Of a DNA stretch of 64,000 nucleotides, positions 1,111 through 49,516 are shown one piece after another. The translations under genes were made by a program, and so were the position numbers. The notes under the pieces are model-generated. The model saw nothing but the letters and a program-made list of their open reading frames with translations, was not told where the DNA came from and did no database searches. How positions within the stretch are numbered: the stretch's first letter is position 1; the number at the start of each line of letters is the position of its first letter. Source of the DNA: Psammoneis japonica (lineage: Eukaryota); the NCBI GenBank assembly GCA_008632985.1, contig QPGO01000063.1, positions 310,001-374,000 of the forward strand, given 5' to 3'.

Positions 1111-1139
1111 CTGTAATTACAGTCGATTTAAAGAACTGG

Positions 1140-10013: not shown

Positions 10014-10899
10014 ACAAGCTGCTCCATTTGGCCCAGCATTGCAGACACAACTGTTGGCATCTCCTTTGTGACCACAGATGTTTTTGGTGCAATCGTTGCC
10101 ATCGTCACAATCAGCATCGACACAACACCTGCAACGGCGACAATCGGGCATTCCCAGTGGTGAAGAAACAATTTTCCCAATTGTGCCGGTGCCTTCAGGC
10201 TGGTGATCCACATCCAGGTGTGGATCCCAGAAACCAGCTGGACAAACAATGGGCCCATGTTTGGGGGGTTCAAACAACCTGGAACACATCACAGCATGTT
10301 CAGCAGTGCACTTGCACAACCAGGACATTGGGTGCCAAAATCCACCAAGCATGCTTGTTTGCACTGTTTGGGAGTGAGGCAATCATCACTTTGACAGATC
10401 TTGCAGATGTGTCCATTGCCATCTTTGAAATTGACAAAGCCAACATGTGTGCGATGGCAGCCACATCCGATGTTGGGGAGACAACAGTCATCTGGCATTC
10501 AAGTTGCATGCCAGCCATGCATGTGCCATCCTCACACCTTTCAGCTCCATTGCCTGTGCACTCAACACAACCAAGAAACCTGTCACATGTTTCTTCAGGT
10601 TGGCAGACAAGCTCCATTCCAGCCATGCACATGCGGTCATCCCCGCATGTTCCTTTCCATTGCAGACATGTCCGTCATCGCATTCATTGTCGTGGTGCAT
10701 CTGTGGCTGGCAGGAGGCACAAAAGGTTCAAGGTCCTTTTTGGTCCTGAGATGCCCACGCTCCTCCTTAAGGGACATGGCTCTGCCCAAGACAATCACAG
10801 CAAAGATCGCCTTGGTGAAGTTCATTGTCGCAAAAACTTGGCTGGTGTTTCGTCTGCTGTTTTCAACCACTGACAAATCATTGTGGACATGATGGTGGC

Positions 10900-13800
10900 A
10901 CAACAATTGCAACAGCAGGCAATGTCAAAAAGGAAAGAAGGGCAGCCAGTTCAATGTGTTTTGATGAATGAATCCAAACAAAATGTCCACAAGTGTCAGA
11001 CAGCACTGTGGGGCAGCCAATTTCACAAGACAAATGAAACAATTTGAGCCGTAGCCACGATCAACACCATCGCAACGAGTGATGAGTTGCCAGATTTCAA
11101 AACAGTCAAGCAAGCTGTGACATGTGTGAGTGACAAGGGAAGCCACCATGGGCATTTTTTTTCAGAATGTCTGTGTGGTCCAATGTGCGCATTCCCGGAA
11201 ATCCACACTGTGCATCAAACTCAAAGGTTCTCCCCAGTTGACGTGTGGAGGCATGCTCCACCTCATCTTCTCCAAGGCAAAGATTCTTTAAGAAGATGCA
11301 GGAATGCATTGCCTTTGTCATCAATGTGCCCTTTGCAACCACATTGTCCTTCACGAGCTGGAAGTGGGTCTTCACCATTGAATCTTTGCAATTTCAATCG
11401 ATGGCATGCTTGAGTTTCCTGGCATGTGACTCTGTTGTCAGGACTGTCTTCAAAATCCATGCTGGAGCACACCAGTGGTTGCATTGCACCCCATTTTTTG
11501 GCTTGCAGGATGTCATTGAAAATGGAGCAGACAAGTTTGTGATCTTCCCTTCATGGCTTGTGATTGCAATTGAATGCAGCACAGTGCAGGCATCCCCCGA
11601 GCTCATCACCATGTGTTCTGATTGGTTCTTTGTGCAAAGCTTCATGGTCCAATGGGCACAATGAGCATGCACACCCCACTTTGCCATCACCATGGAGTTC
11701 CAACCACTGGTCATGCATCTCTTTGTCCAACTTCTTTGAGTGCTCCTCTTGTCTCTTTGCTCCTCTCTGCAGGCATTCTTGGAGGTGAGTTGGACAATGG
11801 GGCACATGCTTTTCCACAGTGTGCTCACCATGAATGTTGCAGCAGCACCTTTGAATCATCTGCTTTGGAGGAAAAACTTCAGAGCATTCTTTGCAAAGAG
11901 CTTGCATTTTGGGATTGATCAGAGTGTTGGGCATTCCCAGTGAGTGCTGGTGTGGGTCCTGCCTTGCATTCTGTGACAGTCACAATTGCTGTGGTGAGTC
12001 CCATCCTTTTTCTTAGAAAAATTGGAGCTCTTCCTTCAAGGCATCTGGAACAACTTGACGGCAGATTTCCCATTTCATGGTCATCCCTCACATTTCTTCT
12101 CCTCTCTTTTGTTGCTCTGCTCTGTTTCTTCTCTCCTCTCTGATTGCATTTTGTGCCCACGTTGCATGGCAGGACATGTGTTTGCATGAATCCCTCTGGG
12201 AGGACGAGTTTTTGTGGGGATGTCAACTTTTCAAATGTGCTCATCTGCCTGTCAACATTTGTGCAGTGACATGACACACCACCCTCCCAGATGGTGGGAG
12301 ACATTTCCATGTCATGCCAGCATGTCACAGGCCCACCCCAGCCAACCCTTTTATGCTCAACTGCAGGAACACATGCAATGATGATTTGAAATCAAAAACC
12401 ACCATTTTCGGTGGCATGCCAACTTGCTTGCATCATCAAGCCTCTTCAGTTGAACCCAACATTGTGTCATTCTTCAGCACTCATTGTTTTTGCCATGGCG
12501 CACTCCTTTTTTGATTCGGACTTGGACAATGACTCCATTGGCTCAGATGAATTTAGGCATTGTCCCAGCAATGACAATGAGGACATCTCTAACATGCCGT
12601 CACTCACTGCACGGCAGCCCAATCTCAATGTGTCGGATGATGAAGATGACAACAATGTGACAAACCCACACTGGCCACTGCCACCAATGCACATTGCACA
12701 GCTGTTGCTGCTGCTGCTTTGTGTCAGGATGAAGCCAACAAAGAAAACCCTCATGATCACACAGGAGATGGCTGGCATCAAAATGGTGGTGACAATTTTG
12801 ATGCACAAGAGGAAGAGAAGGAGGACAACAATGCCCTGCTGTGTGACTGCACTGGCCTGCACAACATGCTTGGTGTTGTTGACATGGCATTTTTGGGGTT
12901 GGAGTCAGAGTGGAAAAGCCCTGTCATCATGCCCATTTCCATTTCAGTTGCCAAGGGAATCCCACCATCCCATTTTGTGGAAGATGACATCGCTGAGCAT
13001 TTGGGCAGCAGCTTGCAGGCAAATCTGCACAAAGGTGCTCTCACTCATTTTGACACTTTGAAACACCCCCTCCACCACCACACTGGCCAAGGGCTGCAGC
13101 AATGCCAAATCAAAAAACAGCGTGTTGTGTGCAGACCTCCAATTGCTTGGCCATGCTTCAGGATTTGAAACAAAAGCCAACAGCTCCAGCCTCATCCTTT
13201 GAAAATCCCATCTCAAGCACACTCATGACAAAGACCAGACTCTTCACCAGCAAGTTCTCTTGGGAACTTGAATGACTTCAAAGTCTCGACACTGGGTGAG
13301 GAGCTTGTGCTCATGTCAACCTTCATGTTCACATGCCAAGCTGTCTCGTTCAATTCCAGCAATTCACAAGGGAATCTGTTGACAACACATTCAAGCATTC
13401 TGGCATTGTCTTGTCCAGGCAAATGAACAGCAAGAGCCTTCATGCCAATGCACTCAAACAAGGGAGCATCCTCAAAAATGGCATCTCAAAACTCTCGCTC
13501 TTTGTGGTTGTCTTGTCTTGCTTCTTCTCCCTGACAAATGTGAGACTCAAAGTGTCTCTCTCTGGAGTGCTCTGCCAAGCTGTGTGGAGTAAAAGATCAC
13601 AAGCTCATGGTGCTGCATGTGCAGTGAGGAGCAAGCAAGTTGCTGGGAAAGTGTGAGGAACACAAGGCTTGTCAGCTGTTGCAAGGACACATTGTGTGCA
13701 CATTTGAAGCAACACAAAAAAGCTGTGAAAGTGTGTGGCACGCAAGTTTGTCTCCAACAAGTCATTTGATTGACACTTTGAAGTCTTCAATTGCAAGGTT

Positions 13801-16800
13801 TTTGCCCACAGAAGAAACATCAAATGCCCAAAATGCAGCAAACTGACAAATGTGCTAAAACAGAAGCCCTGCACTTCATTGATGCTCAGACTTGCTTGTT
13901 GTTGACATGATCTCTGGATCAGCAGCAGATTGTGCTCAGGACAGGCCCTCCTCCTTCCAGCAGCTCAGCATGCTGATGCCACTTGTTCTTGTTCCACACA
14001 AACAAAAAAGAGCTTCAATTCTGGGGAGCTGTTTCATCAAGATTGGCACCCAATTTTGGTTGGCTTCAAGCTGCAAAGCTGCATTGTGGCATGCAATGGG
14101 GAGTGAACCTGCCCCCGCACTCACAAATCTGCCCTGCTGGATTTGACAGATGAAGGCAGCAGTGAATGAAGAGGATCCAAGAGGACAGCTTCCACCTGCA
14201 ATGGCTCTTGTCAAAAAACAATGGCTTCAGCCACCGGATCAATCGGCGGATGAGTTTTGGGTCACAGCAAGAGCCACTTTGGTTGCTCTGAGAGGTTTGC
14301 TTCTGTGGCAATTCAGACCACAACCGATTCTCCTGTCCAACAATGTTGCAAGAGCTTGTGCAAACAACCTGCTGGCATGAGTGGACGAGGCATGCTGAAA
14401 CTAGCTACACTGCAGGTGTGCACATTCCAGCTCTGGCAGTGGCAGCTCTCAAATTGTCAGTTTCACACTGCAGCAGTTAAGGCCTCAAAACGCCTTCAAA
14501 ATCACTGTCGTTGCATCACAAGAGTGTGAAAAGGATGGCAACCAACACGTCACGAACATTCAGACACCATCTCTAGACATGAATGTTCCTGTTCCTTCCC
14601 AAAAGATTGGCGACAAAGGATTTGCCAACCATTCAGATGTTGGTGCACCGGCATGATCAATCGTGCAAGAAGCATCGTGACCTGTTCTCCCAGTGCCATT
14701 CTGCCATTCCGACCAAGCTTTGTAAAACTTCCACAGAGCACAGGTCAAACAATTGAACAGATCATCACATGAATGATCTAGAGTTCAATGCTGCTTTCAA
14801 AGTGGAGAGAATCCAAGGAACCCTGGTTGCCACGGAAGCTTTGTTTCTTGCTCAGCCCATCAGTTCTTGAAAAGATTCTCACATCCAGGCTTGACTGGGG
14901 CCACCCAGCTCTCTTTGGATGCACCCAGCACAGCTGGGGACACAGAGCTTAGTCTCTGGTGCAATTCTCTGTGGCTGTCGAGTTGTCTCCACACAAAGCT
15001 TCAATGCACTGTTGCAGCCAGGGCACTTGGCATTTTGACTCTTGTTCTGTGGCAGAAGCATTGAGAGTTGAGTGCCAGATGAGCAAAGAGCACAAGACAT
15101 GGAAAAAGGGAGCACACAAAGCAGCTTGCAGTGTGCTTTTTCTGGTGGCAGCAATCTTTGTGTGTGCAGGTGTGCATGTGTTTTATGACTGATGCACATT
15201 TTTGCAAAAATCAATGCTGCATCCACAACAAGCCAAAGGCCCCCCACCCAAACACCCCGGGTGCTGTTGCATCAATCAGATCTCAGCAAGTTTGATGGAA
15301 ATGAGATGTGGGTTCATGGCCACACATCATGCCAAATGTTGAAATGGGCTGTGGCTTGGCATGGCATGACTGCAGCATTGGAGATCAAACATGAATTTCA
15401 AACTGCCAGCTGATTTCCAGGGGGGCATCTTCCAAAATGCCAAGTCCACATCAACCCCTGTTGTGTTGCCCAACATGCCCAAGACAACAACAGCTTGTCC
15501 ATGAGCCATTCAATGTGCTGACAGTTGAGCCGGCTACTCTGTGTGCACATGGTTGTTTCAGCTGTTTGCCATCATTCTTGTTTGACAGCAACAACTTGCC
15601 ACTGCATCATGTGGTGTGATGGCCACCCTGTGCTGCACAAAAATGGCATCACCCCCAATGAAAGCAATCAGGCAATGACACAATTCTGTCATGGCCAACA
15701 AAGTGCATGCCAAACCATGCTTTCAGACTTCCAAGTGGCAGAGCGGGCTTGCAGTGTGGCTCAGAAAGCCTTTGTGAATCACAAAATTCTCCAGTGAAAG
15801 AATTCACAACCTTGGAGGAAGAAAAAATGCCAATTGGACCCGGTGCAATGATGTCAATTCTTGCAAGAGAGATTGTGAGATGCTTCATGAAAAGCTGCAA
15901 GCAAAGGAGATGGTTGTGGCTGCTTTGATGAGCCAATGCATTGAAAAGCTGAGAAAGTGAGACAAGCTGCTTACAGAGCTCAATGTGCCAAAGAGGAACA
16001 TGGTCAACATTTTTCACTGAATCAAAGTGTTGGAAGAGTTGTTTGTCAGTGCCAAGCATTTGGTCAATGTGCAGCTCAAATTCCTCCTGAAGATCATGGT
16101 CACCTGTGCCATGCAACAATCATGATGGGAGCATGTGGAGTCATCATTGCCACAGTCATGTCACTGTAAAGCCCTGGGTGGCCCTTCTCCCCATGAAATG
16201 CTGCTTGCAAAATGCCACAATTCTCAACTGTGGCAATGAGTTTGACAACTGTGCAGTGTTTGCAATGCCAGTCAGAGAGTGCCTGCAACAACAGCAATGA
16301 TCACCTGGCAAGACAAAAAAACGGCACTGCCACAAACTTCTCACACAGGTTCAAGGAGAGCACCATTGGTCTCAGATGATTTTGACAGCTCATGCCTTCC
16401 TTGTGAGGCAAGCTTCCCCATTGAAACAACTGAAAAGTGCCACAACAAGGGAAACTCTTGCCATTTCATGAGTGCAGAATCTGGCACAAAGAGGCCCTCT
16501 TTGCAGCCTGGCTTCATTTTTGTCCCTGGCAATGTCTGGTGGCCTGGGGGTTTGTCACAAGCATCTTCACAAGTTTGGCTTTGGAGGGTGTGGTGCTGCA
16601 GAGACAGTGTGGTGTGACATGAGTGATCAGGACAAACTTCGGGTGGGTGGGACAAACAAACAATGTGCCAGGACCTCTGCACCTGACATCTGCACAATGA
16701 CCAATTTTTTTGCATTGCTTGGCAAAACACCTGCACGCACCTCATCAACTTTTTGAAGACAAGCTGTGCTCATTGCCAACAAATTTGGGTTGAATTGATC

Positions 16801-17270
16801 TGGACAAAGCTCAAATTCCTGTGACATTGCAAGGCACATGGCACAATTGTGCACACCTTGGTTCATCACTCAATTGTGCTGTTTTGCCCCAGATGGGGAC
16901 AAGATCATGAAGCCCACTCATGGCTGCCACTCCTTTTGTCACCGTGCTCCAAGCAACTTCTGGCTGCTGGTCCTTGCCCCACCTGGCTTTGTCTGTCAGG
17001 CAGCACGCCCATCTCAAAGTTGCTTTCCAGCTGATCTTGAGGTCCTTGCTGTCTGTCTCATTTGCATCTCCCTCCTCATCTTGAGGTTCTTGCTGTCTGT
17101 CTCATTTGCACCACCCTCCTCAGTTTGTGATTGAGTTTCCTGTGCAACTCATCATCATCAATGTCAGAGGGGCCAGGGATTGCTTGGGGTGCAGCCTCTT
17201 TGACAGGTTGGGTTGGTCTGCCCTCATCCACCCAGGTTGCTTGGGGGGTTTGCTGACTTTCAACTGCTCT
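10900..17270. other. Heavily eroded TpA- and CpG-depleted relic sequence, family not assignable by eye
   Basis: Only one TA in 13201-13800. Fragmentary protein-like stretches occur on both strands. Confidence 0.6.
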
Positions 17271-17274
17271 GGTG

Positions 17275-18330
17275 CCCCATGTGTGCACTGGGCGCTGAAA
17301 AGAAGATGTGTCACGACCTTGTCGTTGTGAAAATTGTGAGCTAGTTTAGAGCAGAGAAAGTGGGATCGTGCGAATGGGGAATCTTGCCAAATCCCCATTC
17401 GTTCGCATTTGGATCGTATCAAATCGATCGTGTGTTTGCATTGTGGATCGTGCGAATCAAGCCATCACGCGCTGTGCACGAGTGATGTCATCGTGTGGAA
17501 TCACGCCACCATCGTGGGCCAGACGACGGGCTAGTGTGCTTCACACGGATGCTCTCTTAGCATCCTCCTGGAATTTCCTAAGACCTAGAGCCATGCCCTC
17601 CTGTGGTCGTGCTTCCCAGGTGCGTGTTGACAACACTGCGTTGTCATGCACAAGAGGCTCATGCACGGTCTCACCATGTTGTCCAGCAGCGAGGCATGCT
17701 GCACACTCCCCCATGATCAGGGCCGTCAAGTGACAGGATGTCTTGCTGGTGACAGGGTGCAATCTGCCGTAGATTGTGCGCATCTGTCAGCGCTCCATTC
17801 TGGGTGCGCAACGTGCCGTTGTCATGTGCACGGACAACTCTGGCGGGTCCTGCATGGCTGTCAGAACTGCATTTAGAGGATTGCTCCTGTTTGACAAGTG
17901 CCAATTGCCCTGCGGCACATTGATGCTCCTTGCGTTTCTGATTTTCACGCTTGTCATTCAAGTGGACAAGCTTCTGCTTTCTGGTTTCTGTGCACTTCCA
18001 CTCAGCACGATGGGCAACAGATGAAACCGCATCGCGTCAGGATGCTAAGAGAGCATCCGTGTGAAGCACACTGGCCCGTCGTCTGGCCCACGATGGCAGC
18101 GTGATTCCACACGATGACATCACTCGTGCATGGCGCGTGATGGCTTGATTCGCACGATCCACAATGCGAGTGCACGATCAATTTGATGTGATCCAAATGC
18201 GAAGAAACAGGGATTTGGCAAGATTCCCTGTTCGCACGATCCCACTTTCTCTGCTCTAAACTGGCTCACAATTTTCACAACGACAAGGTCGTAACACATC
18301 TTCTTTTCAGCGCCTGGCACACACACAGGG
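17275..18330. mobile_element. MITE family B with about 290-bp TIRs; TA TSD mutated to TG (left) and CA (right); Tc1/mariner-like
   Basis: 17275-17566 is the reverse complement of about 18040-18330. Flanks are TG (17273-74) and CA (18331-32). Confidence 0.85.
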
Positions 18331-18393
18331 CACAGCAACATTGCTCCCGCATGTTGTGCGAGGTGACGAAATCTGCAGAAACGAAACTACAAA

Positions 18394-19470
18394 ATGTTGG
18401 CAGGACCAACAAATCTCAAAACGACCATGAAGAAGCGGATTGAGCCGCCGATTCCGTTCGCACGGCCGGAGAAGAAAGAGCTGCAGCAGGGTGAGCACCA
18501 GACGTTCAAACTGCGCAACAACCCCACTGATCCGGATGGTCCAACGCACGAGATGGGCATCCCACACCTTTCTGCGGCTACATGCGAGACACTCCCAATC
18601 TTTCTGCGCAACGTGGATCGCGTGCACAAAGGACAAAACATGACGACCGGGCCAGCGAAATTTGCCCTTGTGCGTGACCTGTTACAGGGCGATGCTCTGA
18701 CGTCATTCAACAATGCCGCTGACAAGCAGGCATCCCAAACCAATGCTGCGTGCGCAGCATGCGTCGCGAAGCTAAAGGAAAGTGTCTTCCCACATGGGGC
18801 GGTGCCATTGCAGAAGCGTCATCTGAGGCGCTTCATGCGCAAGCCCGCAGAGGTTTCTGCTCATGACTGTGTCACGAGGGCTGTTGAAATTAACGGCCAC
18901 ATCTCTCAGTTTCCACCCGTGACGGAGGATGGAGAAGCACCGGCACCATTGCCCAATGACGAACCATGCGACATGTTCGAGTGCGGTGTGCCGAACGCAT
19001 GGCAGAAGTTCATGATGTTACAGAATTTTGACCCGTTGGCACATGCCATCGCCGAATTTGCACAGTTCTGCAAGTGCATCGAGCAGGTCGAGCTTGCCGA
19101 AGGTGACCTGGACCAACACACTAAGATTCCACGCAAGCGGGGACGTAGAACGGACAATCCTGAGTCGTTGATCACGACCCAACGGAACACCCAGAAGTCG
19201 TGCATGCCACACGGGACCAACTGTGGACATCACACGGAGGATTGCCGTCAGCTCAAGCACCACGTGAAACGTGTCAAGACTGGACATTCCAATGACGGAG
19301 GCAGCAAGCCCAATGCAAAACCTCAGAATGAGGAAGACATTGGTGCTCTCATCGGATCAAAGGTCGAGGAGTTCTGTGCCAACGCTCAGAAAAAGCGCAA
19401 GGCACGCGAGGAGGAGCTCAATCACTTCCGCGACCTCAACTCAAGTGATTCCGAAGATTCGGACACCTGA
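18394..19470 (+). pseudogene. gag: gag of second Ty3/gypsy
   Basis: 358-aa ORF with CHHC knuckle CMPHGTNCGHHTEDC and no Tyr residues. Confidence 0.8.
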
Positions 19471-22100
19471 GAAGGGGGCCGACATGACACAGGTGGTTTT
19501 GGGCACATTGGGTGAATGCACTGATGAACAATTGAATTGCCATCGTACACGTGTTGTAGGCCAATCCCGCAAACGAGTTAAAAAGACTCATCTTGCTCCA
19601 ATCTTGTTTGTGGCTGTGAACACCAAACATGGCAAGGGCAAGACTCAAACCATCAAGGCACTGCCAGACAGTGGCGCCAGCAGCACTGTGCTTGACAGTC
19701 GATGCTGCAAGCATTTGCGAAGCCGTCCAACGGCTGAGACAAACTGGGCCATGGCAGCAGGCTCGTTCAGCACGTCTGACGACTGTGCCGTTAAATTTCG
19801 GTCACCAGAATTGTCCGAAACTGCAGAACCAAGGTGGTGCAGGTACAAAAGTGGGCCAGATTCTGCGCACGTAGAGACTGGCATGTTTTCTACACAAATC
19901 GCCAAAGTCGGCTCGCCAACTTGAACCCTCTCCAGGACGATGGAAACTTGGACATTTCACGTGACAAAGTGTTTGGACCACCCAGTTGCACTTCCCTCGA
20001 CTTGTTTGTGAAGAGAAGTCACAAGTTTCCATGGGTTTCTTGTTTTGCACTGCTCTTCAAAACTTGAACGTCGCGATTTCGGCACCTTTCTGATTAGATT
20101 CGTTGCACATCCTCAGAAACCTGTGAAAACTTGTAACTTCTCTCCCTGGGCAAGTCGAGGAGAGTGTAATGAGCAGGTCGAAACACTTTGTCATGTGAAA
20201 TGTCCAAGTTTCCATCATCCTGGAGAGGGTTCAAGTTGGCGAGCCGACTTTTGTGATTTGTGTAGAAAACATGCCAAGCTCTACGTGTGTAGAATCTGGC
20301 CCACTTTTGTGCCTGCACCACCTCAAACATGCCGTCCACGCACACAACGGAAAGTTGGGCAAGTGCAACATGATCATTGGACGCGACATTCTGGAGACAC
20401 AAGGCATTGACATTGTCTTCTCTAAACAGTTGACAGAGTGGCCATCAGTCAATGGAGAAGTGCCAATGAAGCACACGGATGCTGCGGTAGAAACCTCCTT
20501 CTATCTTCAAGATCCAGAAGCCTTGTCTTCAGAAACCGACCGGATTTCACGCATTTCAGATGCTGAGCACGCGCCTGCCTGCCTCGAGGACATAACACAA
20601 GGGACAGCGGGACTTTCTAAAGTTCAACAAAATGACCTTTTGGCACCATTGAAGCGCCACGAGTCCTCATTTGATGGGACATTGGGAGAATGGAAGGGAG
20701 AACCCCACCATGTCCAACTCAAGAACCATGCCACGCTCATCCGCATGAAGTGCCTCGTGCGTGCGAAGCTGTGATGCACTGTGCAAAGAATTGGAATGCC
20801 TGGTGCGTGTCGGTGTTCTCAAACGCGTCAACCGATCCCAGTGGGCAGCTCCATCATTTGTCACACCGAAGAAAGATTTGACGGCATGCTTTGTCATTGA
20901 TGATTTGAGAGAGCTGAATAAACGGATCAAGCGATCACCTTATCCGATTCCTCACATCCAAGACATGCTACTTAGGCTCGAAGGCTTTATGTGGGCCACA
21001 TCGCTGGATTTAAACATGGGCTATTATCATATCCGATTGGATGCTGATAGCAAGAAGCTCTGCACGCTCATCTTCCATTGGGGCAAGTATGAGATGCAGG
21101 TATTGCCCATGGGATTATGTAATTCGCCAGACATTTTCCAAGAACGCATGTCAGGCTTATTTGAAGATCTATCGTTCGTTCGAACGTACTTAGATGACCT
21201 TCTCGTCGTGACGAAAGGCACCTATGAAGATCACCTCAACAAACTTGAAGAAGTTTTATTGAGGGTCCAGAAAGCAGGACTAAAAGTTAACGCAATTAAA
21301 TCTCATTTCTGTCAACCCCAATTAAAATACTTGGGTTATCTGGTCAACAGAGACGTAATACGACCAATACCTAATAAAGTCGACGCCATTAAGCGAATCG
21401 CGACCCCAACCAATAAACGCGACCTACGGTCATTTATTGGTATGGTGAACTACTACCGTGACGCGTGGATTAGACGTTCTGAAGTCTTGGCTCCGCTAAC
21501 ACGACTCGTAAGCGAGACTGTTAAGTGGGAGTGGACGTCCGTTGAAGACGAGGCGTTCGAAACCGTTAAACGGGTGATATCGGATGATGTTTTATTATCA
21601 CATCCTGATTTTAATAAACCCTTTGAGATACATACCGATGCCTCTAAATATCAATTGGGAGCAGTTATATCCCAATATAATAAACCTATCGCCTTTTATA
21701 GCAGAAAGCTTAACAGTGCGCAATTAAATTATACAACAACGTAGAGAGAATTGCTCGCCATTGTGGAGACGTTGAAAGAATTTCGAACGATTCTCCTCGG
21801 TCATCGTATACTTATATATACTGATCATAAAAATCTTACGTACAGAGTATTCAATACCGAGCGCGTTATGCGCTGGCGGTTAACATGCGAAGAATACGGT
21901 CCCAAATTACGCTATGTTAAGGGTACCCATGACCTAGTCGCTGACGCTCTTAGTCGCCTTCGGCTAGCACCCAGCTTGCCTTCCGAGGCCAATCCGGATG
22001 TAAAAGACACTCCATCAAGTCGTCCTTTGCATGAAGCTTTTAATGCAGATGCGCAAGACGATGCATCTCTGCCTGTTGGCTTCAAGTGCATTCAAAAAGA
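19471..22100 (+). pseudogene. pol: pol of second Ty3/gypsy (MITE insertion, frameshift near 20750, TAG at 21742-21744)
   Basis: LDLNMGYYHI, LPMGLCNSP, YLDD, LGYLV, AFYSRKL, NYTTT*RELLAIVE, YTDHKNL and VADALSRL. Confidence 0.92.
19833..20322. mobile_element. MITE family C (about 490 bp, long TIRs GGTGGTGCAGG...), possibly PIF/Harbinger-like
   Basis: The arms are reverse complements over more than 140 bp. Removing 493 bp restores the protease frame, consistent with a 3-bp TWA-like TSD now reading CAA/TCA. Confidence 0.85.
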
Positions 22101-22500
22101 AGATGTGCTGCGACCTTGTCGTTGTGAAAATTGTGAGCCAGTTTAGAGCAGAGAAAGTGGGATCGTGCGAACAGGGAATCTTGCCAAATCCCCATTCGTT
22201 TGCATTTGGATCGTGTCAAATCGATCGTGCATTCGCATTGTGGATCCTGCGAATCAAGCCATCACGCGCCATGCACGAGTGATGTCATCGTGTGGAATCA
22301 CGCTGCCATCGTGGGCCAGACGACGGGCCAGTGTGCTTCACACGGATGCTCTCTTGGCATCCTTCTGGAATTTCCTAAGACCAGAGCCATGCCCTCCTGT
22401 GGTCGTGCTTCCCAGGCACGTGTCAACAATGCCACGTTGTCACGCACAAGAGGCTCACGCACGGTCTCGCCGTGTTGTCCAGTGGCGAGGCATGCTGCAC
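22095..22500 (+). mobile_element. Truncated copy of MITE family B left arm
   Basis: Aligns to about 17298-17704 and lacks the terminus. Confidence 0.85.
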
Positions 22501-23940
22501 TGGGATCAATGCAGTCAGCACAGTCAGCCCTGATCAGATGCTTTCTAGATGGGAGTGCAAGTGTCACTTCTTTTAGCTTCTGGCATGGCCCACGCACCTT
22601 GTCAGCTTGATCCTGGTGGTGACTTGCCAAATGGCTTGAGGGCATTGTGCTCCAGTCCCCACGGGGGGGAGCAGATTGTGCTGCACGCATGCACAACCCT
22701 GCAGCACACTGGCACATTGAAGATTGCAGCATTTGTTCATTTTCATTGAGGGGGGTCATCCCCGCGTTCATCCTAAAATTGCCGTTGCATTTGAACAAGG
22801 TTTTTTTACAGTGTTCATTTTTGAACACAAGAATCATTCACAGTCACACCCGATCGCGCACGAAAACGAGAACCATCAACACCGCGATCGAAGCACGACA
22901 ATGATGACAATCATCGACATTTCTCAAAAACGCAGTTTGCCGTCTGCCAACTTTTCATGCACGTGCAATCTTTGACACACAACAAACATAAAATAAATGA
23001 GAGTTGGCAGACGGACCACCTCCGTCACAGACTTGTGGCTTGTTGTTTTCACCACCACGGTGAAGCACGGTGAAATTCAGGAAAAATCATGCAAAACAAG
23101 CCATTCGGCCGAATTCGAGCTAAAAAAAGCAGCAACCTGCCACCCTAAGCACAGATGCTTGCAATGATGTGTGCAGCACATTGCAAAGCCGATGCTGGGA
23201 ATGCTCTCTCCACACCACTGCACTGACCTGTGGTGCACTCAAAGCCATGCTTTGGGTGGCAATCCCAAGCTCATTGCAAGCTGGCTTCAGGAGTTTCTGC
23301 CACTCTTGTGCACTGTTTGCATGACCATTTGTGCTCATCTGGGACCTTCTTGCACATGTTGGTCTTCAACTGCTGCAATGCAGCCTGCCCAAATCTCATG
23401 ATGTTTCTTGTCAATCTGTCTGACAACCTCCAACTTGCTGAAGTGGAGCAGCGCTGCATTGAAATTTCTGGGCTCCAGCACCAACCTCTTCTTGTGGAGC
23501 TCTTGAAAGAGTCTTCCACTGTGCTGATTGCTGACCTGGTCATTCTGCCTCCAGCACACATGTGGAGAGTTGTGCAAGAAAGGGCACTCCACCACACACG
23601 TTTCTCTCAAGAAGTTGAAGAAGATTTGCATTGGTTGGCTTGGCAATTGAGTTGACTCTTGCTTTGCACAGCAAACCAAGTCTTTCAGCTGGAAAAGAAC
23701 TCTTTCTTGGTCCAGCCATTTGCAGCACATGCCTGATTCAATTTTTTGCCTCTGCCATGTTGAATCTTTCCTCCTTGCCTCCACTTGCCAGTCATGTTGA
23801 AAAGCAATTGATGAATTGATGCTTGTCATTCATCAGAAAAGTGCTGTTTTGTTTTTGTTGTGGTTTTGTTGCCACGATTTGAACATTGTCACTGATCATG
23901 GTGGCACTGGACACCGGTGCTGGACAGAACCACTGAGATC

Positions 23941-24117
23941 GAACCAGCAAAAGATCCTGTCCGTGTGTGTTGGTTTGTCTGCAAAATCTTTTTTCGCGTG
24001 ATCTGGAGTCTTGCACAATTTTGTGTGACTGACAACTTGTCCCACAATCTGGTTGGGTCAAACAAGTCAAATTTGATGGCTGGATTTCATTCAAATCTCT
24101 GCATCAAAAACACACTC
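23941..24117 (+). repeat. Degenerate duplicate of the RAD52 upstream region (24857-25035)
   Basis: Shared blocks tgtgttggtttgtctgca, caatctggttgggtc and tggatttcattcaaatctc. Derived changes include tttaacgg>tttgatgg and gtcgaacgag>gtcaaacaag. Confidence 0.8.
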
Positions 24118-24119
24118 CT

Positions 24120-24833
24120 TTCATTTTTTGCCTGCTTTGCATGTTTGCGCCGTGATGGTGAGTTCACAGCACCGTGCTTGTTTTGGTGCACTGGGCTGAT
24201 TCTGCCAGTGCTGGCATGACATCATGTTGTGTGCACCACACACTGGAGTGAGCTGCAAGTGTGGGAGCTTTGAGCTGTGGGACCTGGTGCCTCTTCATTG
24301 CTGCCAGCAGAGCACCAGCTTTGTCATTTGATCACTCCAACTGTGCTGAGGGCACAAGGACAGGGCTCTTGTTCTTGATGCTGTGAGTCACAAGGTTTGT
24401 TCTTCTCTTTTCACCTCTGCCCTGCAATGAGTGCATCTAACTTTTCAGAGGACTTGCCCTTGGCAAACACTTCCAGTTCTTTTTTTCCCTGGCTGCTTCG
24501 ATGACAACATGACAAGGACTGATGCTGGCTGGATTGCCGGGGTGGCTCATCTTGAGGTTTTTGAATGACATGCAGAACAGAGCTCTGGAGATGGCATCTT
24601 TGTTCACATTCACTCCTCCTGCATGAAGCAATCTCGAATTGAAAATGCCGCAGCATCCCGCAGGCAGCACTCTCCAAAAACAGGGGGTGCTGTCCTCAGC
24701 AAGCAACACTCTGGGCTCTCGTCACCATCAGGAGGAATCAACTCTCATCCTTGAATGATTTATGTGCCTTCTGAGTGTGAGTGCCAGGCAACCATGCGGT
24801 TGGTCCCATGTCTTCCGAGACATCTTGAAGTGA
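24120..24833 (-). pseudogene. Partial duplicate (3' third plus 3' flank) of the PhyH gene at 32978-34150
   Basis: Aligns to about 32708-33403 (LPAGCCGIFNSRLLHAGG...EKLDALIAGQR*) with frameshifts and TA>TG/CA, CG>TG/CA changes. Confidence 0.93.
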
Positions 24834-24903
24834 TCATCATCACGATCAATCGATCAAAACAGCAAACGATCGTGTCCGTGTGTTGGTTTGTCTGCAGAAT
24901 CTT

Positions 24904-24911
24904 TTTCGCGC
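24904..24911 (+). promoter_or_regulatory. Candidate E2F site (TTTCGCGC) upstream of RAD52
   Basis: Matches TTTSSCGC about 180 bp before the ATG. The motif is short and could be chance. Confidence 0.3.
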
Positions 24912-25086
24912 GATCTACCAATACAAATAAATCGCGTCTAACCGCCGCGACGACGACGACTCCTCAATCTGGTTGGGTCGAACGAGTCAAATTTAACGGT
25001 TGGATTTCATTCAAATCTCGCAATCAAAAAACTCAAAACATGCAACCGACAACGGACACCGGCGGTGGAACATTTTAGCGTTGACA

Positions 25087-26602
25087 ATGTCCAACGTCAC
25101 AAATCTGACGGCAGCGTCATGTCCCACCTCGACTACTCCAAGACCGGTACATCAAGTGTCGGCAGAAGTTGCTGCCATGGAGTCACACGCCAAACAAACG
25201 TATCGTCCACCGGGAAGTCAACATTCCGCAATGTCGTCGGAACATCAACACGCTGTTCCGGTAGAATTGGTACGAAACGCCGATGGAACTCCGCTTGTTG
25301 ATTCCAAGGGTCAAATTGTTTCCGTCGACAAAATTTTGGCGACAAAACCGCTCCGCCATGAGTTGAGCAGCCGTCCGGGTCCGGGAAATCGCAAACTCAC
25401 GTACTTGTCGGGCGAAGGTGTGACTCGCACACTCAATGACATTTTTGGGTACAGCGGATGGAATCTCGACATCAAATCAACCAAGCGAGAAGAATGCGTC
25501 AAGGACGACAAGGGACGCTATCATGTGGCGTATACTGCAACGGTACGATTGACCTTGTGCAAATCGGGAGCGTACAAGGAAGACTGTGGGGCGGGAGATG
25601 CAATCGATCGGTCTTTGGGAACAGCGGTAGCGAATGCACTCAAGGCTTCCGTGACGGATGCTATGAAACGAGCAGCGAGGCATTTTGGTGATAAGCTTGG
25701 GAATTGTGAGTGCAAATAATTGATTCGTAGTTGTCGTCGTGAATAATTACATTATTTCGCTCACGTTCTTGATATCTTTTTCTTTCGGATTCTCAGCTCT
25801 CTACAATGGAAATTTCAGCATGAACAAAGCACCCACCTCTCTTCAAAATGCTCTCGACCAGTATGATATCGATCGAGCCAATACAAAGTTTGGGTTTCCA
25901 AAAGATCGTGTTGCAAAGGCTAATGTTCAGACAAATAACGCTTCGACCGTACAGAAACAAACTAATACCTCCCAGCAAAAAACCGGCAGCTCATCTCAGG
26001 CTCCAGTCACTTCCACCCCAATCACTGCGACTACAAAAACAAGTGTACTCAAGCCACCGCCGGCACGTGTCAGCATGGGAAACACTGCCAGCAGGCAAGC
26101 TCTGCCATATCAGCCGACACCGGGCCCTTCCGACAACCAAAACAATCGTCCAATGGTCACGCCTCAACCACCACAAACTTCGCAATACCAGAAACCCACT
26201 ACTGTTGGTATTAAAGTTCCTCAGTCAAAGCCACCACCACCACCACAACAACAGCAGGGCCAACCCAAGGTTCCTCCCTTTCAGTCAAAGCCGACAAGTA
26301 TGAGCCAGTCGAATACTACCCAATCGCAATCCATCAAACCCATCTCTGCTCGAGAAAGTCTCGAGTCAAGTGGTCTCTTTGATTTGTCCATGTTTACAGC
26401 CGGAACCAAAACGACGGCTCTGCAAGGCAACAATGAAAATATTCACCCATACGACATGCCTCGTCCCGCCACGTCCACGGGACGGGGCCCCATGGCTGGC
26501 AAAAAGAGGACGACAGCGTCGTCTTGTCAAGAAGCAGAGACTCGCAGCAAGAAACAACCATCCGATGGGGTCAGCAATCCCTATCTTGCAAATAGTTTGT
26601 AG
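25087..26602 (+). CDS. RAD52: DNA repair/recombination protein RAD52 (exons 25087-25705, 25797-26602)
   Basis: Rad52/22 domain RPGPGNRKLTYLSG...NDIFGYSGW...VTDAMKRAARHFGDKLGN|SLY joined across a GTGAGT...CAG intron, followed by a Pro/Gln/Thr-rich disordered tail. Start codon uncertain. Confidence 0.93.
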
Positions 26603-26964
26603 CGGTGGTGGTCGACTTTTGCGCCCCTTGTGTTTTGCTGTAACGGGGTAATTATTGTGTGTGAATTCCAGCACGATTCTCCCGTCAATTGTCCAACCGA
26701 CTGGGTTTTTGGATGTGTCGCGATTTGCAGGTCCCGAGATGCTATTCAATTGCATTATGGAACTGTCTATTTCAAAGAGTGAACAGCAAGAGCAAATATC
26801 TACAGGATACCCATACTATGGACTACCAGGTATGGAGTGTGAATGTTTCTATTCCAGAGACTGGAAAAGATCCATGTACTTTGTAATCTAGCATATTTTA
26901 CTACTGGCTCCAACGAATGTATATCTACTCTAGACAGTGTTGTCTTGAATCTGTGTGCATGATT

Positions 26965-28638
26965 TCAGTTTGACATCAGCGAAGAAGTGTTTTTCTCGGA
27001 GACGTAGTTCCTTCTCGTCTTTTCGTCCATGACCTGCACCTCGCTTGGAGAAATTGCTCCAGACGCCACCATTCTCACCAAGTCCAACGATAGCTTCTCG
27101 TTTCCATCATCACTATTTTTCTCTGCATCACTTCCGCGATATACCATGGTCCCATCTATTGGATAGTATGCGTCCTTGTTCTTTTCAAACAAGGCATTCC
27201 AATCCTTCCATAGCTCCTTTCGTACATACTGCATGGGAGAACGACCCTGTTTGTCTTGAACAAGCACTTGTTGGGGGTCCACTCGCAGAATTAAATCAGC
27301 TATTGGTTCACAAAAGTTGGATGCCCATGCAGCGTGATGCAGGGGCGTCCGTCCAAACCCATCGCAGACACGCAAGCTACAACCATGATTGACGAGGCAC
27401 TCTAGAATGCAAAAGTTGGAGCGCTTGCAAACGAGATCGACAATCGAGTCACCAAAGGAATTGCGTGGGTTGGGAGACACTCCGCATTCCAAGAGAGATT
27501 TTAATAGCGTAACATTCGAGGCATTGACGGCCTTGACCATTTCTGCTCCAAAGGATGCGAGTTGCAATTGTGTTGGGGCACTGCTGTAGCCCGCTTTTGT
27601 GGTGGATAGCTTCTTGGTGCGATACCCACGCTCGTGAAGAAGGGTCATGACGTGAACATCCGGCGAGTCTTGCGCTTGTTCCAAGTTTGCTGATAACGAG
27701 TTACGAACACCACCGCCAAATACTTTAACTTTCTCAGTTTTGTGTGGTTGGTCTACCATGATTCGAGGTTGTGGGAGAGGATTCATTTTGGGAGGGTCAA
27801 TGTCGGATAAGGTAGGCCCACGAGCCACGACATCTAGAGATCCTAAGAGAGCGTCATATCTCGGGAGTTTTGACGGAGGGGGTGCTTTTGAGGAACCGGT
27901 TCTCTTGTTGGCTCGTTTCTTAGCTGTAGACGACTCTCGTGGTTTGATAGCAGCTGCCTGTGTAGCAGACGCTACTGGTTGACCAATCTGAGAAGACGGT
28001 GCTTGACTTGATGGAACTTGAGATTGAGCGATGTATGTAGGATTCGTCGGTAAATGTAGTGGAGGAGGTGCCTGCTGAACATTAACTGCTCCAGTAGAAT
28101 AGGTAGCAGGAAGAGGAGCCATTCTCTTATCGCCGACTCCATCCTCAAAGGCCCAAAGAATAGCGTCTTCAAGGGGAGAATTGCTTCTCTTTTGCACCCC
28201 TGATGTTGCAATGCGAGCAGCATCACTGGAAGGATTCTGGTTCGAAGTAGCAGACTGAGCTTGTGACTGCTGTTGTTGCATCGGTGTCGGCAAGGGAATC
28301 TGTTGAGGTGTCGCAGTGATCGGATGAGCGCCTGGTTGTTGCTGCATTTGTTGAACGTATGCCTGAAAGAAGTTCTGATAGAGAGATGAATTCTGGTGGG
28401 GTGGTATTCTTCCATCATCTTGCGGATTTGGATGCTGCTGAACTGCAGCGGTACACACAGATACAGACGTGGCTTTGGAAAGCTCCGAATCCAAAGGAGC
28501 GCCAGCTACTTGATTCATCCCGGATGTCACATGTTGAGAGCCATCTTGATCACACTCTTGACCACTCACTTTCTCTTGTTGACCTTCATTGTTACATGAA
28601 GAGTCCTCTTGTTGAGCACGGTTGTTCGTCGGGGGCAT
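26965..28638 (-). CDS. Ankyrin-repeat protein with Gln/Pro-rich N-terminus
   Basis: GVSPNPRNSFGDSIVDLVC, DGFGRTPLHHAAW and DKQGRSPMQY ankyrin-like motifs in an intact long ORF. Confidence 0.85.
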   Translation of the reverse strand: MPPTNNRAQQEDSSCNNEGQQEKVSGQECDQDGSQHVTSGMNQVAGAPLDSELSKATSVSVCTAAVQQHPNPQDDGRIPPHQNSSLYQNFFQAYVQQMQQQPGAHPITATPQQIPLPTPMQQQQSQAQSATSNQNPSSDAARIATSGVQKRSNSPLEDAILWAFEDGVGDKRMAPLPATYSTGAVNVQQAPPPLHLPTNPTYIAQSQVPSSQAPSSQIGQPVASATQAAAIKPRESSTAKKRANKRTGSSKAPPPSKLPRYDALLGSLDVVARGPTLSDIDPPKMNPLPQPRIMVDQPHKTEKVKVFGGGVRNSLSANLEQAQDSPDVHVMTLLHERGYRTKKLSTTKAGYSSAPTQLQLASFGAEMVKAVNASNVTLLKSLLECGVSPNPRNSFGDSIVDLVCKRSNFCILECLVNHGCSLRVCDGFGRTPLHHAAWASNFCEPIADLILRVDPQQVLVQDKQGRSPMQYVRKELWKDWNALFEKNKDAYYPIDGTMVYRGSDAEKNSDDGNEKLSLDLVRMVASGAISPSEVQVMDEKTRRNYVSEKNTSSLMSN

Positions 28639-31269: not shown

Positions 31270-32291
31270 TTCATGCTGACAGGTGACAGCACTTGTTCAC
31301 TTCGCACTTGAGCAGTTGCTGCAAACAATCCAAGCACCGCTCGGGAATGCCCGTCAAGTTGCCGATTTGTTCCATGATTCCCATGGCAAAGGGACTTTTG
31401 TGGCACTCATCATGGCCCCAAGCTTGTTGCAAGGCATGACAGTCTGTCACCTCAGCTTCAAACAAGACCATTGTCTTGGAAGAGCCTGTAGCTTGTGCGG
31501 TGGATCACTCGCACCCAAGAGCAGCGCCCACCTCAATCAAGGTGTCACATTCCATGTCATTCAAACAGTCATCCAGCACTGCAATCTGTGGTCCATTGGT
31601 TGTTTTGTCATCATCTGATGGTTGTGACAGAATGAAAACTTTGTGCAATTTATTCCACTTTGATTCTTGGTCGGCAATGTGCTCAAACACTTTGTGAGTT
31701 CCCTTGGCTCCATGGCACAAGCGGAATGGTTGGATCCCATGATGGACATCTCAACATGACGTCCAAATCAAAACAACAAGACATGATGCTCCACACTGCT
31801 CCAGCATGAACTGGGCATTGTTTTTGCATTCCCCAACAGTCTTCCAATGGACACAGCTCTCATTGGGGTTTGTGCACACTTGTCTCACAATGCAAACTCA
31901 CAATCTGATTCCATGTGCACTTCAGGGTGCAGACAATCCAGAGTTTCAGCAACAACAAATTGAACTGCTTCATGGTTGCCATGCAGCATGACTTGTGGAA
32001 CACCCAAATCAATTGATCCATCATTGCAGGCATGCGGACAACTCTTGCGACACAAGGATCGAACGCCAGATGAAAAGGAAGCACGGCAACAACCCGCTCG
32101 TGCCCATGTGGTGCATTGGCTGCATTCATCCACGCAAAATCCAAAGGAACATGATCCACATCATTAAGATGTGGGATGCTCTCGAGACTTGGTCTCTTTT
32201 GAGCAAAGACAGCAGCCGAACCGGTGCATTGCATTGTCACTTGTTGGAACAGCAGCCAAGCAATCAGATGTTTCGTGTGCTCCGTGATCAT
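31270..32291 (-). pseudogene. Prolyl 4-hydroxylase alpha-like gene with ShKT domain, degenerate
   Basis: ShKT NESCVHWKTVGECKNNAQFMLEQCGASC (about 31770-31865), VLDDCLNDMECDTLIEVG, and IGNLTGIP...QLLKCEVNKCC (from LLKYEV..YY). Confidence 0.75.
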
Positions 32292-49500: not shown

Positions 49501-49516
49501 AGACCATTTGCTAAAT

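Follow-up and report, generated by a model that had tools for sequence, protein, structure and literature searches.

The window analysed here, a stretch of 64,000 nucleotides from a Psammoneis japonica contig (QPGO01000063.1, positions 310,001 to 374,000), contains two gypsy retrotransposons, both on the forward strand. Gypsy 1 (949–6336) is a complete element with a TpA-stripped interior, and its reverse transcriptase (RT), RNase H and integrase are recognised by Pfam. Its 162-bp LTRs at 949–1110 and 6175–6336 are 98% identical, and the 5-bp target duplication is intact. TA-rich intergenic DNA persists within about 260 bp of this element. Gypsy 2 (18334–22094), known here without LTRs, is a fragment composed, in this order, of a gag with homologs, a protease region with a protease-like DSG motif, RT and RNase H (Pfam RVT_1, RT_RNaseH_2 and RT_RNaseH), and a tblastn search found no integrase in it. 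Over RT-RNase H the two elements share 42% amino-acid identity.

The gag ORF of gypsy 2 (18367–19470, forward strand) is stripped, with 8 TA in 1104 bp; an earlier sequence-only reading of this DNA had described the gag as lacking Tyr, which is true after the first Met of the ORF. The RT domain (RVT_1) lies at 20896–21339 on the same strand (E 6.6e-24, residues 50–197 of the ORF 20749–21744), and the RNase H domain at 21532–21897 (forward; RT_RNaseH_2 E 6.4e-22, RT_RNaseH E 2.7e-11) is broken by a stop. The nonsense codon that the sequence-only reading had placed at 21742 is a TAG (21742–21744, in frame on the forward strand) where relatives encode Glu, and the motifs GYYHI, TYLDD, KYLGY, NYYRD and FYSRK that it had picked out were all found in the translation. 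The protease region carries a 494-bp palindromic insertion at 19829–20322, which is TA-poor too and whose arms (19832–20040 and 20115–20323) are 87% complementary. This segment is absent from five contigs of sequencing run X1, in which 19828/19829 is joined to 20322–20328.

Copies of a further repeat, repeat A, flank gypsy 2 in mixed orientation. Copy 1 (17272–17704, forward) is TA-poor; copy 2 (18039–18333, reverse) adjoins the start of gypsy 2 and is 91% complementary to copy 1 and 95% to copy 3; and copy 3 (22095–22500, forward), 91.6% identical to copy 1, adjoins the truncated end. The block 17300–23108 is highly repeated, with a summed word depth, which is not a copy number, of 1,300–30,000 compared with about 60 on the unique flanks. 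The window contains no second copy of gypsy 2. A scan of metagenomes kept 79 related loci at 59–69% identity, all of them unstripped, with no stripped DNA copy, and a scan of genome contigs gave 16 loci at no more than 71% identity, none stripped.

Extent and exposure of the TpA-retaining island

A dense TpA run from 20919 to 22001 on the forward strand, taking in the RNase H domain of gypsy 2 and most of its RT domain, holds 87 TA in 1088 bp (8 per 100 bp). The same composite repeat block outside this island (17272–20914 and 22042–23107) has 46 TA in 4709 bp, or 0.98 per 100 bp, with a TA observed/expected ratio (O/E) of 0.12–0.21. The probability of at least 87 TA in the island at the rate of the rest of the block is 2.6e-48 (Poisson), so that the TA-rich stretch of about 1.1 kb reported earlier within a stripped retrotransposon is borne out. 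In other TA-poor blocks, the maximum per 1088-bp window was 31 TA, at the RT-RNase H of gypsy 1, and elsewhere it did not exceed 19. The TA, CA/TG and CpG O/E of the island are 1.01, 0.90 and 1.32, respectively. As a baseline we used 27 unmutated relatives, selected from 79 fetched by sufficient upstream sequence and an overall CpG O/E of at least 0.8. The island-to-flank ratio of TA O/E is 5.61 here, compared with 1.23 ± 0.17 (maximum 1.57) in these relatives. The corresponding ratio of CpG O/E is 1.59 (1.32 in the island, 0.83 in the flank), compared with 0.97 ± 0.25.

The left edge of the island falls between 20885 and 20919, and the right edge between 22001 and 22041, within gypsy sequence and about 55–90 bp short of the next repeat at 22095. 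The depletion described earlier after about 22010 begins inside the gypsy sequence, and the integrase of gypsy 2 is absent rather than depleted. Inward spread of mutation from flanking MITEs, one of four explanations offered at that time with no choice among them, is poorly supported, since the left flank consists of 2.6 kb of stripped gypsy sequence itself and the right-hand repeat adjoins only about 90 bp of stripped gypsy.

The most sensitive context of TA is RTAY, and a core delimited by the first and last RTAY (21030–21924, forward strand) holds all 25 such sites of the island. The TAs outside this core, 8 on the left (20919–21025) and 5 on the right (21935–22041), are all in less sensitive contexts. 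With the TA at 22041 assigned to the right edge, RTAY therefore accounts for 0 of 13 TAs in the outermost ~110 bp (left) and ~120 bp (right), compared with 25 of 75 in the core. For this grading, a joint P of about 0.012 was obtained by a geometric estimate, in a test framed post hoc on data already seen; the edges look graded over about 100 bp. Of all TAs, RTAY accounts for 28.7% within the island and for 28.9% of those in host DNA, whereas its share is 7.7% in flanking sequence and 2.6% in old stripped DNA. With its most sensitive TA contexts at host frequency, the island shows no exposure to hypermutation. Survival of the island TAs through a different make-up of contexts was rejected on the same grounds. 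Scans for tRNAs and Rfam families gave no match in the region.

Comparison with relatives was used to determine which part has changed. Six gag alignment columns have Tyr as the commonest residue in seven homologs; in the window, five of these are His and one is Cys. Of the sites with TA in at least half of the 79 relatives, the left flank retains 0 of 11 (4 are CA, 1 is TG and 6 are other), and the island 18 of 27. Judged from these alignments, TA and Tyr are evidently the ancestral states, and the flanks, not the island, are the changed part, as the sequence-only reading had proposed. An island that is itself the mutated part, in the manner of RIP, was rejected because TA and Tyr are ancestral in relatives. 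Selection preserving Tyr codons was likewise rejected: the island TAs are distributed over codon phases as 19:30:38, proportioned as they are in intact relatives (559:1045:1255), in agreement with the earlier statement that selection on this copy does not explain the island. A nested younger insertion was also rejected, since the reading frame and the RT domain continue through the left edge.

TpA loss across the window

The conversion of TpA to CpA or TpG on both strands affects about 60% of the window. In stripped DNA the CpA/TpG O/E is 1.4–2.0, CA and TG are near parity along the blocks, and both His and Cys stand in place of conserved Tyr. Young elements have a TA O/E of 0.12–0.21 while their CpG O/E is still 0.8–0.9, and older stripped blocks are depleted of CpG as well. 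Of the 40 variants listed among 309 in run X1, 18 have TA in other copies and CA or TG in the window, and 8 more are CpG-related. The three differences between the LTRs of gypsy 1 are all TA↔CA. The repeat A copy pairs differ by 8, 11 and 4 CA↔TG swaps, plus columns such as TA/CA/TG. Hypermutation acts on both strands and after integration, because the gypsy 1 LTRs differ at TA and the repeat A copies were mutated independently. Its dinucleotide specificity, both-strand outcome, post-integration action and context preference are regarded as established.

Host genes are spared: regions with Rad52, ankyrin, PhyH and Vps39-like ORFs have a TA O/E of about 0.3–0.85, and the recognisable targets are LTR retrotransposons and other or short repeats. 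The stripped flanks 16000–17302 and 23108–24500 are each represented by one contig at a word depth of about 60–68, a single-copy depth. As TAA and TAG are lost, all six frames of stripped DNA are open, and 98 ORFs of at least 60 aa were found in 11 kb of it.

Two other origins of the signature were considered and rejected. RNA or cDNA editing before integration cannot be the sole cause, since both strands are affected, LTRs differ at TA and repeat copies diverge. A base-calling artefact of modified bases does not account for the loss either, as contigs of run X1 show 4 and 2 differences from the two unique flanks in their stripped form, although this run, for which the library type is not on record, may be the source of the assembly itself.

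Proposed in-situ tracts and competing origins of the island

Gypsy 1 was used as an internal comparison. Its RT-RNase H zone (3257–4721, forward strand) has about 2.6 TA per 100 bp, compared with 0.75 in the remaining interior, and the earlier remark that this region retains more Tyr than the integrase is correct. The RTAY share there is 10.8% (over 3300–4725), and the retained TAs fall in codon phases 7:12:19, without enrichment of Tyr codons. The right edge of the spared zone (4697–4721) aligns with 21997–22020 of gypsy 2, a coincidence within about 50 bp. The stripped stretch ahead of the spared zone is about 2.1 kb long in both elements when the 494-bp insertion is discounted. Stripping of gypsy 1 starts at a point between 1192 and 1247, some 90 bp inside its 5' LTR, where recombination is not suspected, and its integrase end is stripped too. 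The recurrence of the spared zone in gypsy 1 is regarded as established.

Environmental relatives follow the same trend. Among 120 homologs, 9 carry at least two His or Cys at 14 conserved Tyr columns. In these nine proteins, the His/Cys counts per column drop from 5, 3, 5, 5, 5, 4 to 2, 2, 2, 3, 2, 1 toward RNase H, which suggests that fewer conserved Tyr were lost toward that end. One relative, P0047, switches abruptly between the two states along the protein.

We tentatively favour, at slightly less than even likelihood, an in-situ process that works in sharp-edged tracts and has not reached the core. In this proposal, transposon-derived DNA of a eukaryote, probably a diatom or near relative, would undergo TpA-specific transition hypermutation, TA becoming TG or CA, equivalent to A to G on either strand, most likely by adenine deamination. 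The process targets chromosomal DNA, takes each repeat copy independently and prefers R-TA-Y. As a TA transition cannot yield an in-frame stop, stripped DNA keeps long open frames that lack Tyr. Hypermutation would be laid down in tracts or domains with sharp edges of about 100 bp, and in both elements the first ~2.1 kb of the interior would have been consumed, with the RT-RNase H core affected last or least. An enzyme and a director, such as LTR transcription, guide RNAs or a chromatin mark, are presumed, and the island would have been spared, not replaced. It would represent a piece of gypsy 2 that was not reached, a footprint of targeting resolution with no function of its own.

The main competing possibility is that gypsy 2 was fully stripped, and a tract of about 1.1 kb was then copied into it from an unstripped family member by gene conversion or ectopic recombination. 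A length of 1.1 kb with two internal edges, the left at 20885–20919, is typical of a gene-conversion tract. The unexposed core is accommodated as well: a core of zero exposure beside saturated flanks is a stronger contrast than the roughly two-fold lower rate in gypsy 1, and the two effects may differ. The CpG O/E of the island, fresher than that of the flank, is expected of a younger segment no less than of a protected one, and no feature of the window indicates a source of protection. The left-heavy trend seen in relatives would also follow if the RT-RNase H core were converted frequently. Unstripped donors exist; just left of the island other contigs have TA and CG where the window has TG, and at many gag sites a part of the summed depth carries TA. 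The copied tract would have escaped renewed stripping because the process is episodic; in Bigelowiella natans, only 11 of 15 lines showed active hypermutation (bioRxiv 10.64898/2026.01.13.699255).

However, conversion would require the same endpoint, within about 50 bp, in two gypsy families at 42% amino-acid identity, and the RTAY-poor edges would demand an additional spill-over of mutation after conversion. As the island carries the TAG, the donor would have been defective or the stop acquired later. No donor was found, either in the window or above 71% identity in the collections searched. We therefore consider gene conversion unlikely, and the evidence leans towards in-situ tracts, because the spared zone recurs in gypsy 1 despite the low identity, because sharp edges also occur in gypsy 1 where recombination is not suspected, and because the edges are graded, relatives show the same trend and B. 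natans has a like process.

A mosaic could alternatively have been inherited, gypsy 2 being a recombinant already at insertion, formed by a template switch between stripped and unstripped co-packaged RNAs, or descending from a master of this kind. Stripped interiors could be transcribed, since they stay open-reading where mutation cannot create stops, and abruptly switching proteins such as P0047 occur among relatives. At gag positions 19134, 19239, 19311 and 19419, 72–87% of the summed depth has the stripped base of the window, which is compatible with amplified, partly stripped lineages; such common states may, however, have arisen in parallel, the outcome being set by sequence context. This origin requires two switches and leaves the context-graded edges and the coincidence with gypsy 1 unexplained, and it is judged improbable.

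An assembly or polishing chimera, in which reads of a different, unstripped member of a high-copy family supplied the island, was also considered. The block is highly repeated, no listed contig of run X1 crosses 20885–20919 or 22001–22041 as this copy, and the run contains only 0.48 of the sampled words of 17000–23500. X1 was the one sequencing run listed as a match to this DNA, with no RNA run among the matches listed. Nevertheless, the reading frame is uninterrupted at the left edge, and context-graded edges argue against a clean splice. Since the flanks retain copy-specific states that differ from the family majority (e.g. at 19233 and 19442), they have not been overwritten by a consensus. 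The repeat block is merely 5.8 kb long and lies between unique flanks confirmed by independent contigs. The same zone is also partly spared in gypsy 1, where the target duplication is intact. A chimera is accordingly very improbable.

Known systems and consequences for the genome

Repeat-induced point mutation (RIP) of ascomycete fungi is, like the process seen here, a dinucleotide-specific transition hypermutation that disables chromosomal transposons and skews dinucleotide ratios. It changes CpA to TpA, enriching TpA and creating stops, and it needs duplicated DNA. The direction here is the opposite, as TpA is lost, stops vanish and CpA/TpG is enriched, and DNA of single-copy depth is stripped too. 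The deaminases ADAR and APOBEC3 also act against mobile or viral nucleic acid, and the preference of ADAR for a 5' U fits TA, if deamination is indeed the chemistry here. These enzymes act before integration on RNA or on one cDNA strand, in a strand-asymmetric manner, APOBEC3 leaving position-dependent gradients along retroviral DNA. In contrast, both strands are affected about equally here and changes accrue after integration. Somatic hypermutation by AID forms a promoter-proximal tract that starts about 100–200 bp from the transcription start and fades after 1.5–2 kb; stripping from about 90 bp inside the gypsy 1 LTR, with the spared zone from about 2.1 kb in both elements, may be analogous. 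AID differs in base and motif, and the stripped integrase end of gypsy 1 is a further difference.

Decay of transposons by CpG methylation and deamination, as described for diatoms (PMC2806351), resembles the present loss in ending at CpA/TpG and in being limited to transposon DNA, and it is present in the older blocks here. It is a separate clock, since young elements are TpA-stripped at a CpG O/E of 0.8–0.9. In the limited literature searched, we found no report of TpA hypermutation in diatoms.

The closest counterpart, of which the sequence-only reading was unaware, was reported in 2026 for the chlorarachniophyte B. natans (bioRxiv 10.64898/2026.01.13.699255), and the present signature matches it. 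In B. natans, integrated giant-virus and virophage DNA undergoes TpA hypermutation, de novo TpA→TpG/CpA changes were recorded in mutation-accumulation lines, and an ADAT2-like adenine deaminase is a candidate agent (bioRxiv 10.64898/2026.01.13.699255). Both cases affect TpA alone with TpG and CpA as products by strand, are restricted to foreign-derived DNA in domain-like regions with neighbouring ordinary genes untouched, and do not require repetition, the giant-virus region being single-copy and the stripped flanks here being of single-copy depth. The cases also differ: the host here appears diatom-like, the targets that could be recognised in it are LTR retrotransposons and short repeats, loss is near-complete (TA O/E 0–0.2, compared with 0.45 in the giant-virus region), and older blocks are also CpG-depleted. 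Islands within an element, sparing of LTRs and the R-TA-Y preference were seen here and are not described in the main text of the preprint.

A broader proposal, speculative and rather doubtful at present, is that a diatom lineage possesses a TpA-directed adenine-deamination defence addressed at sub-element resolution (~100 bp) instead of regionally. The address would come from LTR-initiated transcription or guide RNAs, and unaddressed LTRs and the RT-RNase H core beyond ~2.1 kb would remain untouched in saturated DNA. On this view the aiming could be read directly from the island, and stramenopiles and rhizarians would either have the system in common or have arrived at it by convergence.

The signature has practical consequences for the annotation of such genomes. 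Gene callers will over-predict in stripped DNA, because all six frames are open. Stripped transposons defeat homology searches, as a family match was obtained for 1 of 99 ORFs of stripped blocks (a copia RT remnant; one further Pfam match was at chance level). LTR divergence is no longer a neutral clock, since every difference between the gypsy 1 LTRs is at TA.

So far, hypermutation specific to TpA and directed at foreign DNA has been described in one preprint, for a single chlorarachniophyte. Its occurrence in a diatom-like alga, if real, would mean either an ancient origin or more than one origin, and would make it relevant to a main group of marine primary producers. Targeting and enzyme specificity can be approached through the island, the LTRs left unstripped and the preference for R-TA-Y, and the island shows how sharply a little-known mutation process of genome defence is aimed.

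Retention of TpA within gypsy 2

By Pfam, the island at 20919–22001 codes for the RNase H domain and the greater part of the RT domain of a gypsy element; it lies within the gypsy 2 fragment (18334–22094, +). It contains 87 TA dinucleotides, about 8 per 100 bp versus 0.98 per 100 bp across the rest of the stripped block (Poisson P = 2.6e-48), confirming the TA-rich island that the sequence-only reading had described within TpA-stripped gypsy 2. Elsewhere in stripped DNA, where TpA has been turned to CpA or TpG, the maximum was 31 TA per 1088-bp window.

Conserved tyrosines were defined as 14 alignment columns with Tyr in at least 60% of the 120 best database homologs. Of the 13 columns that the island covers, 10 hold Tyr, and the residues at the remaining three (W, M, H) each occur in unmutated homologs as well. 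The gag of gypsy 2, said earlier to lack Tyr, indeed has none downstream of the first Met in its ORF; five His and one Cys occupy the six columns where Tyr is commonest in seven gag homologs. A codon alignment was then made with 79 metagenomic relatives, every one of them unstripped (TA observed/expected (O/E) 0.60–1.18). At sites that are TA in at least half of these relatives, the left flank retains 0 of 11 (4 CA, 1 TG, 6 other) and the island 18 of 27, with the final lost site at 20885 and the earliest kept site at 20919. The ratio of TA O/E between the island- and flank-equivalent regions was 5.61 in the window compared with 1.23 ± 0.17 in 27 relatives. Based on the TA and Tyr pattern of the relatives, the flanks therefore underwent TA→CA and TA→TG changes and the island did not. 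The RIP-like reading, with the island as the mutated part, is excluded because TA and Tyr are common in the relatives and lost from the flanks. Depletion resumes right of the island, as had been noticed: the final ~90 bp of gypsy sequence before the next repeat holds a single TA (22041) and, by our own count from the sequence, 18 CA/TG.

TpA loss across the window

The DNA of the window is eukaryotic. Over all 64 kb, the observed/expected ratio is 0.25 for TpA and 1.55 for CpA and TpG. The depletion is blocky, with ~60% of the window at TA O/E 0–0.2 and CA/TG O/E 1.4–2.0, and TA O/E is ~0.3–0.85 in stretches with recognisable host ORFs, namely Rad52 (24997–25719), an ankyrin protein (26965–28740), PhyH (32978–34171), a Vps39/Vam6-like protein (35341–37203) and a further ORF (53986–55032). 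Among the matches listed for the Vps39-like ORF, the named relatives are a Leptocylindrus entry (52%) and a bolidophyte entry (32%). Older stripped blocks (e.g. 10000–17000, 40500–53000, 58000–62000) are also poor in CpG (O/E 0.03–0.3), whereas younger repeats are stripped of TpA and not of CpG (CpG O/E 0.8–0.9). Blocks poor in both comprise these three together with 23200–24500 and 29500–32000, at TpA O/E 0–0.1, the same CpG range and CA/TG O/E ~1.9–2.0, and a known family was matched by 1 of 99 ORFs from them. Within the 13.5 kb of stripped DNA at 39750–53250, a domain is recognisable at one place only, a copia-type RT remnant at 50621–51013 (−) (RVT_2, E 5.5e-7, under Pfam's cut-off).

Both strands are affected, and the DNA is already integrated when the process acts. 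The complete element gypsy 1 (949–6336, +) is bounded by a 5-bp target duplication, still intact, and its 162-bp LTRs differ at three positions, every one TA↔CA (3 of ~30 TA sites lost), and LTR divergence is therefore no neutral clock in this genome. Three copies of a repeat surround gypsy 2 (repeat A: 17272–17704, +; 18039–18333, −; 22095–22500, +); in pairwise comparison the same dinucleotide is CA in one copy and TG in the other 8, 11 and 4 times, and alignment columns such as TA/CA/TG occur, so ancestral sites were resolved independently in each copy. Repeat A consists of an inverted pair of 295-bp arms (17272–18333) plus the third copy, its summed word depth exceeds that of the gypsy, and a purine run directly precedes the TG start in all three copies; instead of a MITE, it may represent the terminus of a different LTR element.

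In the public sequencing run X1, 16000–17302 and 23108–24500 each lie on one contig at a word depth of ~60–68, with 4 and 2 differences from the window, reproducing the stripped flanks at single-copy depth. The summed word depth of 17300–23108, 1,300–30,000, is a sum and not a copy number, and it marks a high-copy family. Among the 40 variants listed (of 309), the window's CA or TG corresponds in other copies to TA at 18 and to CG at 8. Four contigs immediately left of the island carry TA and CG at the window's TG.

The TAs left in stripped DNA are mostly Y-TA-R, R-TA-Y sites being lost first. The share of RTAY among TAs falls from 28.9% in host DNA to 7.7% in the gypsy 2 flanks and to 2.6% where stripping is deep; ATAT makes up 0 of 219 surviving TAs in stripped blocks of the whole window versus 8.1% in host DNA. 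Gains are greatest in RCAY and RTGY, with RTGR above RCAR on an only approximate baseline, which suggests that the edited A tends to have a purine two positions to its 5' side. The chemistry would be adenine deamination, and the targeting signal may come from transcription driven by the LTR, from guide RNAs or from a chromatin mark. TA→CA/TG changes destroy TAA and TAG and cannot create an in-frame stop, so stripped DNA becomes open in all frames; gene prediction will over-call on it with six frames open. In the 11 kb of 16000–27000, we counted 98 ORFs that run from stop to stop over 60 aa or more. The 4.6-kb polyprotein frame of gypsy 1 has only two internal stops, and Tyr is changed to Cys/His at its conserved RT positions.

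From 24500 to 25500, TA O/E climbs slowly (0.19, 0.30, 0.27, 0.52) from a stripped block into the domain-free N-terminal part of the Rad52 ORF, with high CpG (1.3–1.4). Possible explanations are spill-over of the process into the margin of a host gene and a wrongly placed gene start. Host intergenic tracts at 6501–6600, 7101–7200 and 55401–55500 hold 16–21 TA per 100 bp, often in ATAT context. They survive within a few hundred bases of stripped elements; the process does not spread far into host DNA.

Possible sparing of the island

Selection on this copy, which the sequence-only reading had discounted, is excluded by the codon phases of the retained TAs: 19:30:38 in the island versus 559:1045:1255 in intact relatives, and 7:12:19 in the RT-RNase H of gypsy 1, where Tyr codons are not enriched. 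The TA make-up of the island is likewise excluded as a cause, since the sensitive RTAY context is at host frequency (28.7%); by this share the island received essentially none of the process. Of the four causes proposed earlier, we lean towards patchy tracts in situ, on graded edges, recurrence in gypsy 1, sharp edges and a trend in relatives, and gene conversion is left as a rival. Intrinsic escape from tract-like, in-situ TpA hypermutation is our tentative reading, at slightly less than an even chance.

RTAY sites run from 21030 to 21924 in the island. The 13 TAs outside these limits (20919–22041) without exception have contexts of lower sensitivity, and 25 of the 75 in the core are RTAY (geometric estimate framed after data inspection, joint P ~0.012). 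These graded, unclean edges argue against an assembly or polishing chimera, as do the continuous reading frame across the left edge, copy-specific states in the flanks that differ from the family majority, and a repeat block of just 5.8 kb between confirmed unique flanks. Although none of the run X1 records listed spans a junction as this copy, such a chimera is quite unlikely.

The RT-RNase H of gypsy 1 is less depleted, as had been proposed, with 2.6 TA per 100 bp at 3300–4725 and 0.75 in the other interior. Its RTAY share of 10.8% indicates a partial dose. The two elements share only 42% amino-acid identity. The right edge of the spared zone in gypsy 1 (4697–4721) aligns with 21997–22020, at most ~50 bp from where the island ends on the right, and both elements have ~2.1 kb of stripped interior ahead of the spared zone, a figure that for gypsy 2 discounts a 494-bp palindromic insertion. 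This TA-poor insertion (19829–20322) lies inside the protease region and is absent from five contigs of other copies.

A sharp edge is also found in gypsy 1, without any sign of recombination: TAs are dense to 1192 and sparse from 1247, a transition ~90 bp inside the LTR. The gypsy 1 LTRs and the adjoining ~75–90 bp keep their TAs, and more than 90% are lost from the interior. For the island, the all-or-none contrast with the flank and a tract length typical of conversion would fit gene conversion at the gypsy 2 locus, for which unstripped family members are possible donors. The island exceeds its flank in CpG O/E as well (1.32 vs 0.83), a ratio of 1.59 compared with 0.97 ± 0.25 in 27 relatives. 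We regard conversion as unlikely but a serious competitor, and an inherited recombinant as improbable; a share of the probability between those two is assigned to no reading.

The trend in relatives came from the 120 best homologs of the island protein, 9 of which have His/Cys in at least two conserved Tyr columns; one has His/Cys at 11 of 12 and no Tyr anywhere. Environmental samples therefore also contain stripped copies of this gypsy clade. Across the nine, which are stripped in part or in full, the count of His/Cys per Tyr column drops from 5, 3, 5, 5, 5, 4 to 2, 2, 2, 3, 2, 1 toward RNase H, and P0047 switches abruptly ~170 bp right of the position of the island's edge. Environmental RT homologs with this replacement include P0114, P0094, P0084, P0060, P0047, P0117 and P0051, in some of them within a patch only, so TpA stripping occurs in uncultured hosts. 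For P0002, loci L080–L095 and several further proteins, the contigs with this eukaryotic gypsy clade stand under bacterial names or in bacterial MAGs (e.g. a protein named after a Flagellimonas species), probably reflecting eukaryotic contamination of the records.

Comparison with Bigelowiella natans

A 2026 preprint on B. natans (bioRxiv 10.64898/2026.01.13.699255) describes the closest match. There, de novo mutations lie nearly all at TpA, giving TpG or CpA. They occur in a region of integrated giant-virus DNA and in a virophage region, at ~1000x the background rate, and were limited to a subset of the mutation-accumulation lines. The candidate agent proposed is an ADAT2-like deaminase, and TpA-poor, CpA/TpG-rich clusters were enriched for reverse transcriptase/transposase domains. 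The window bears the same TpA→TpG/CpA signature. In contrast to B. natans, the targets that can be recognised here are LTR retrotransposons and short repeats, and TpA loss is near-complete; the host also differs, appearing diatom-like from the named relatives of the Vps39-like ORF. No report of TpA hypermutation in diatoms was found in the literature searched.

In summary, the island is real, and the window presents a further form of a genome defence that was first reported only recently. The chief value of the island is the spatial information it gives on how the TpA defence is aimed.
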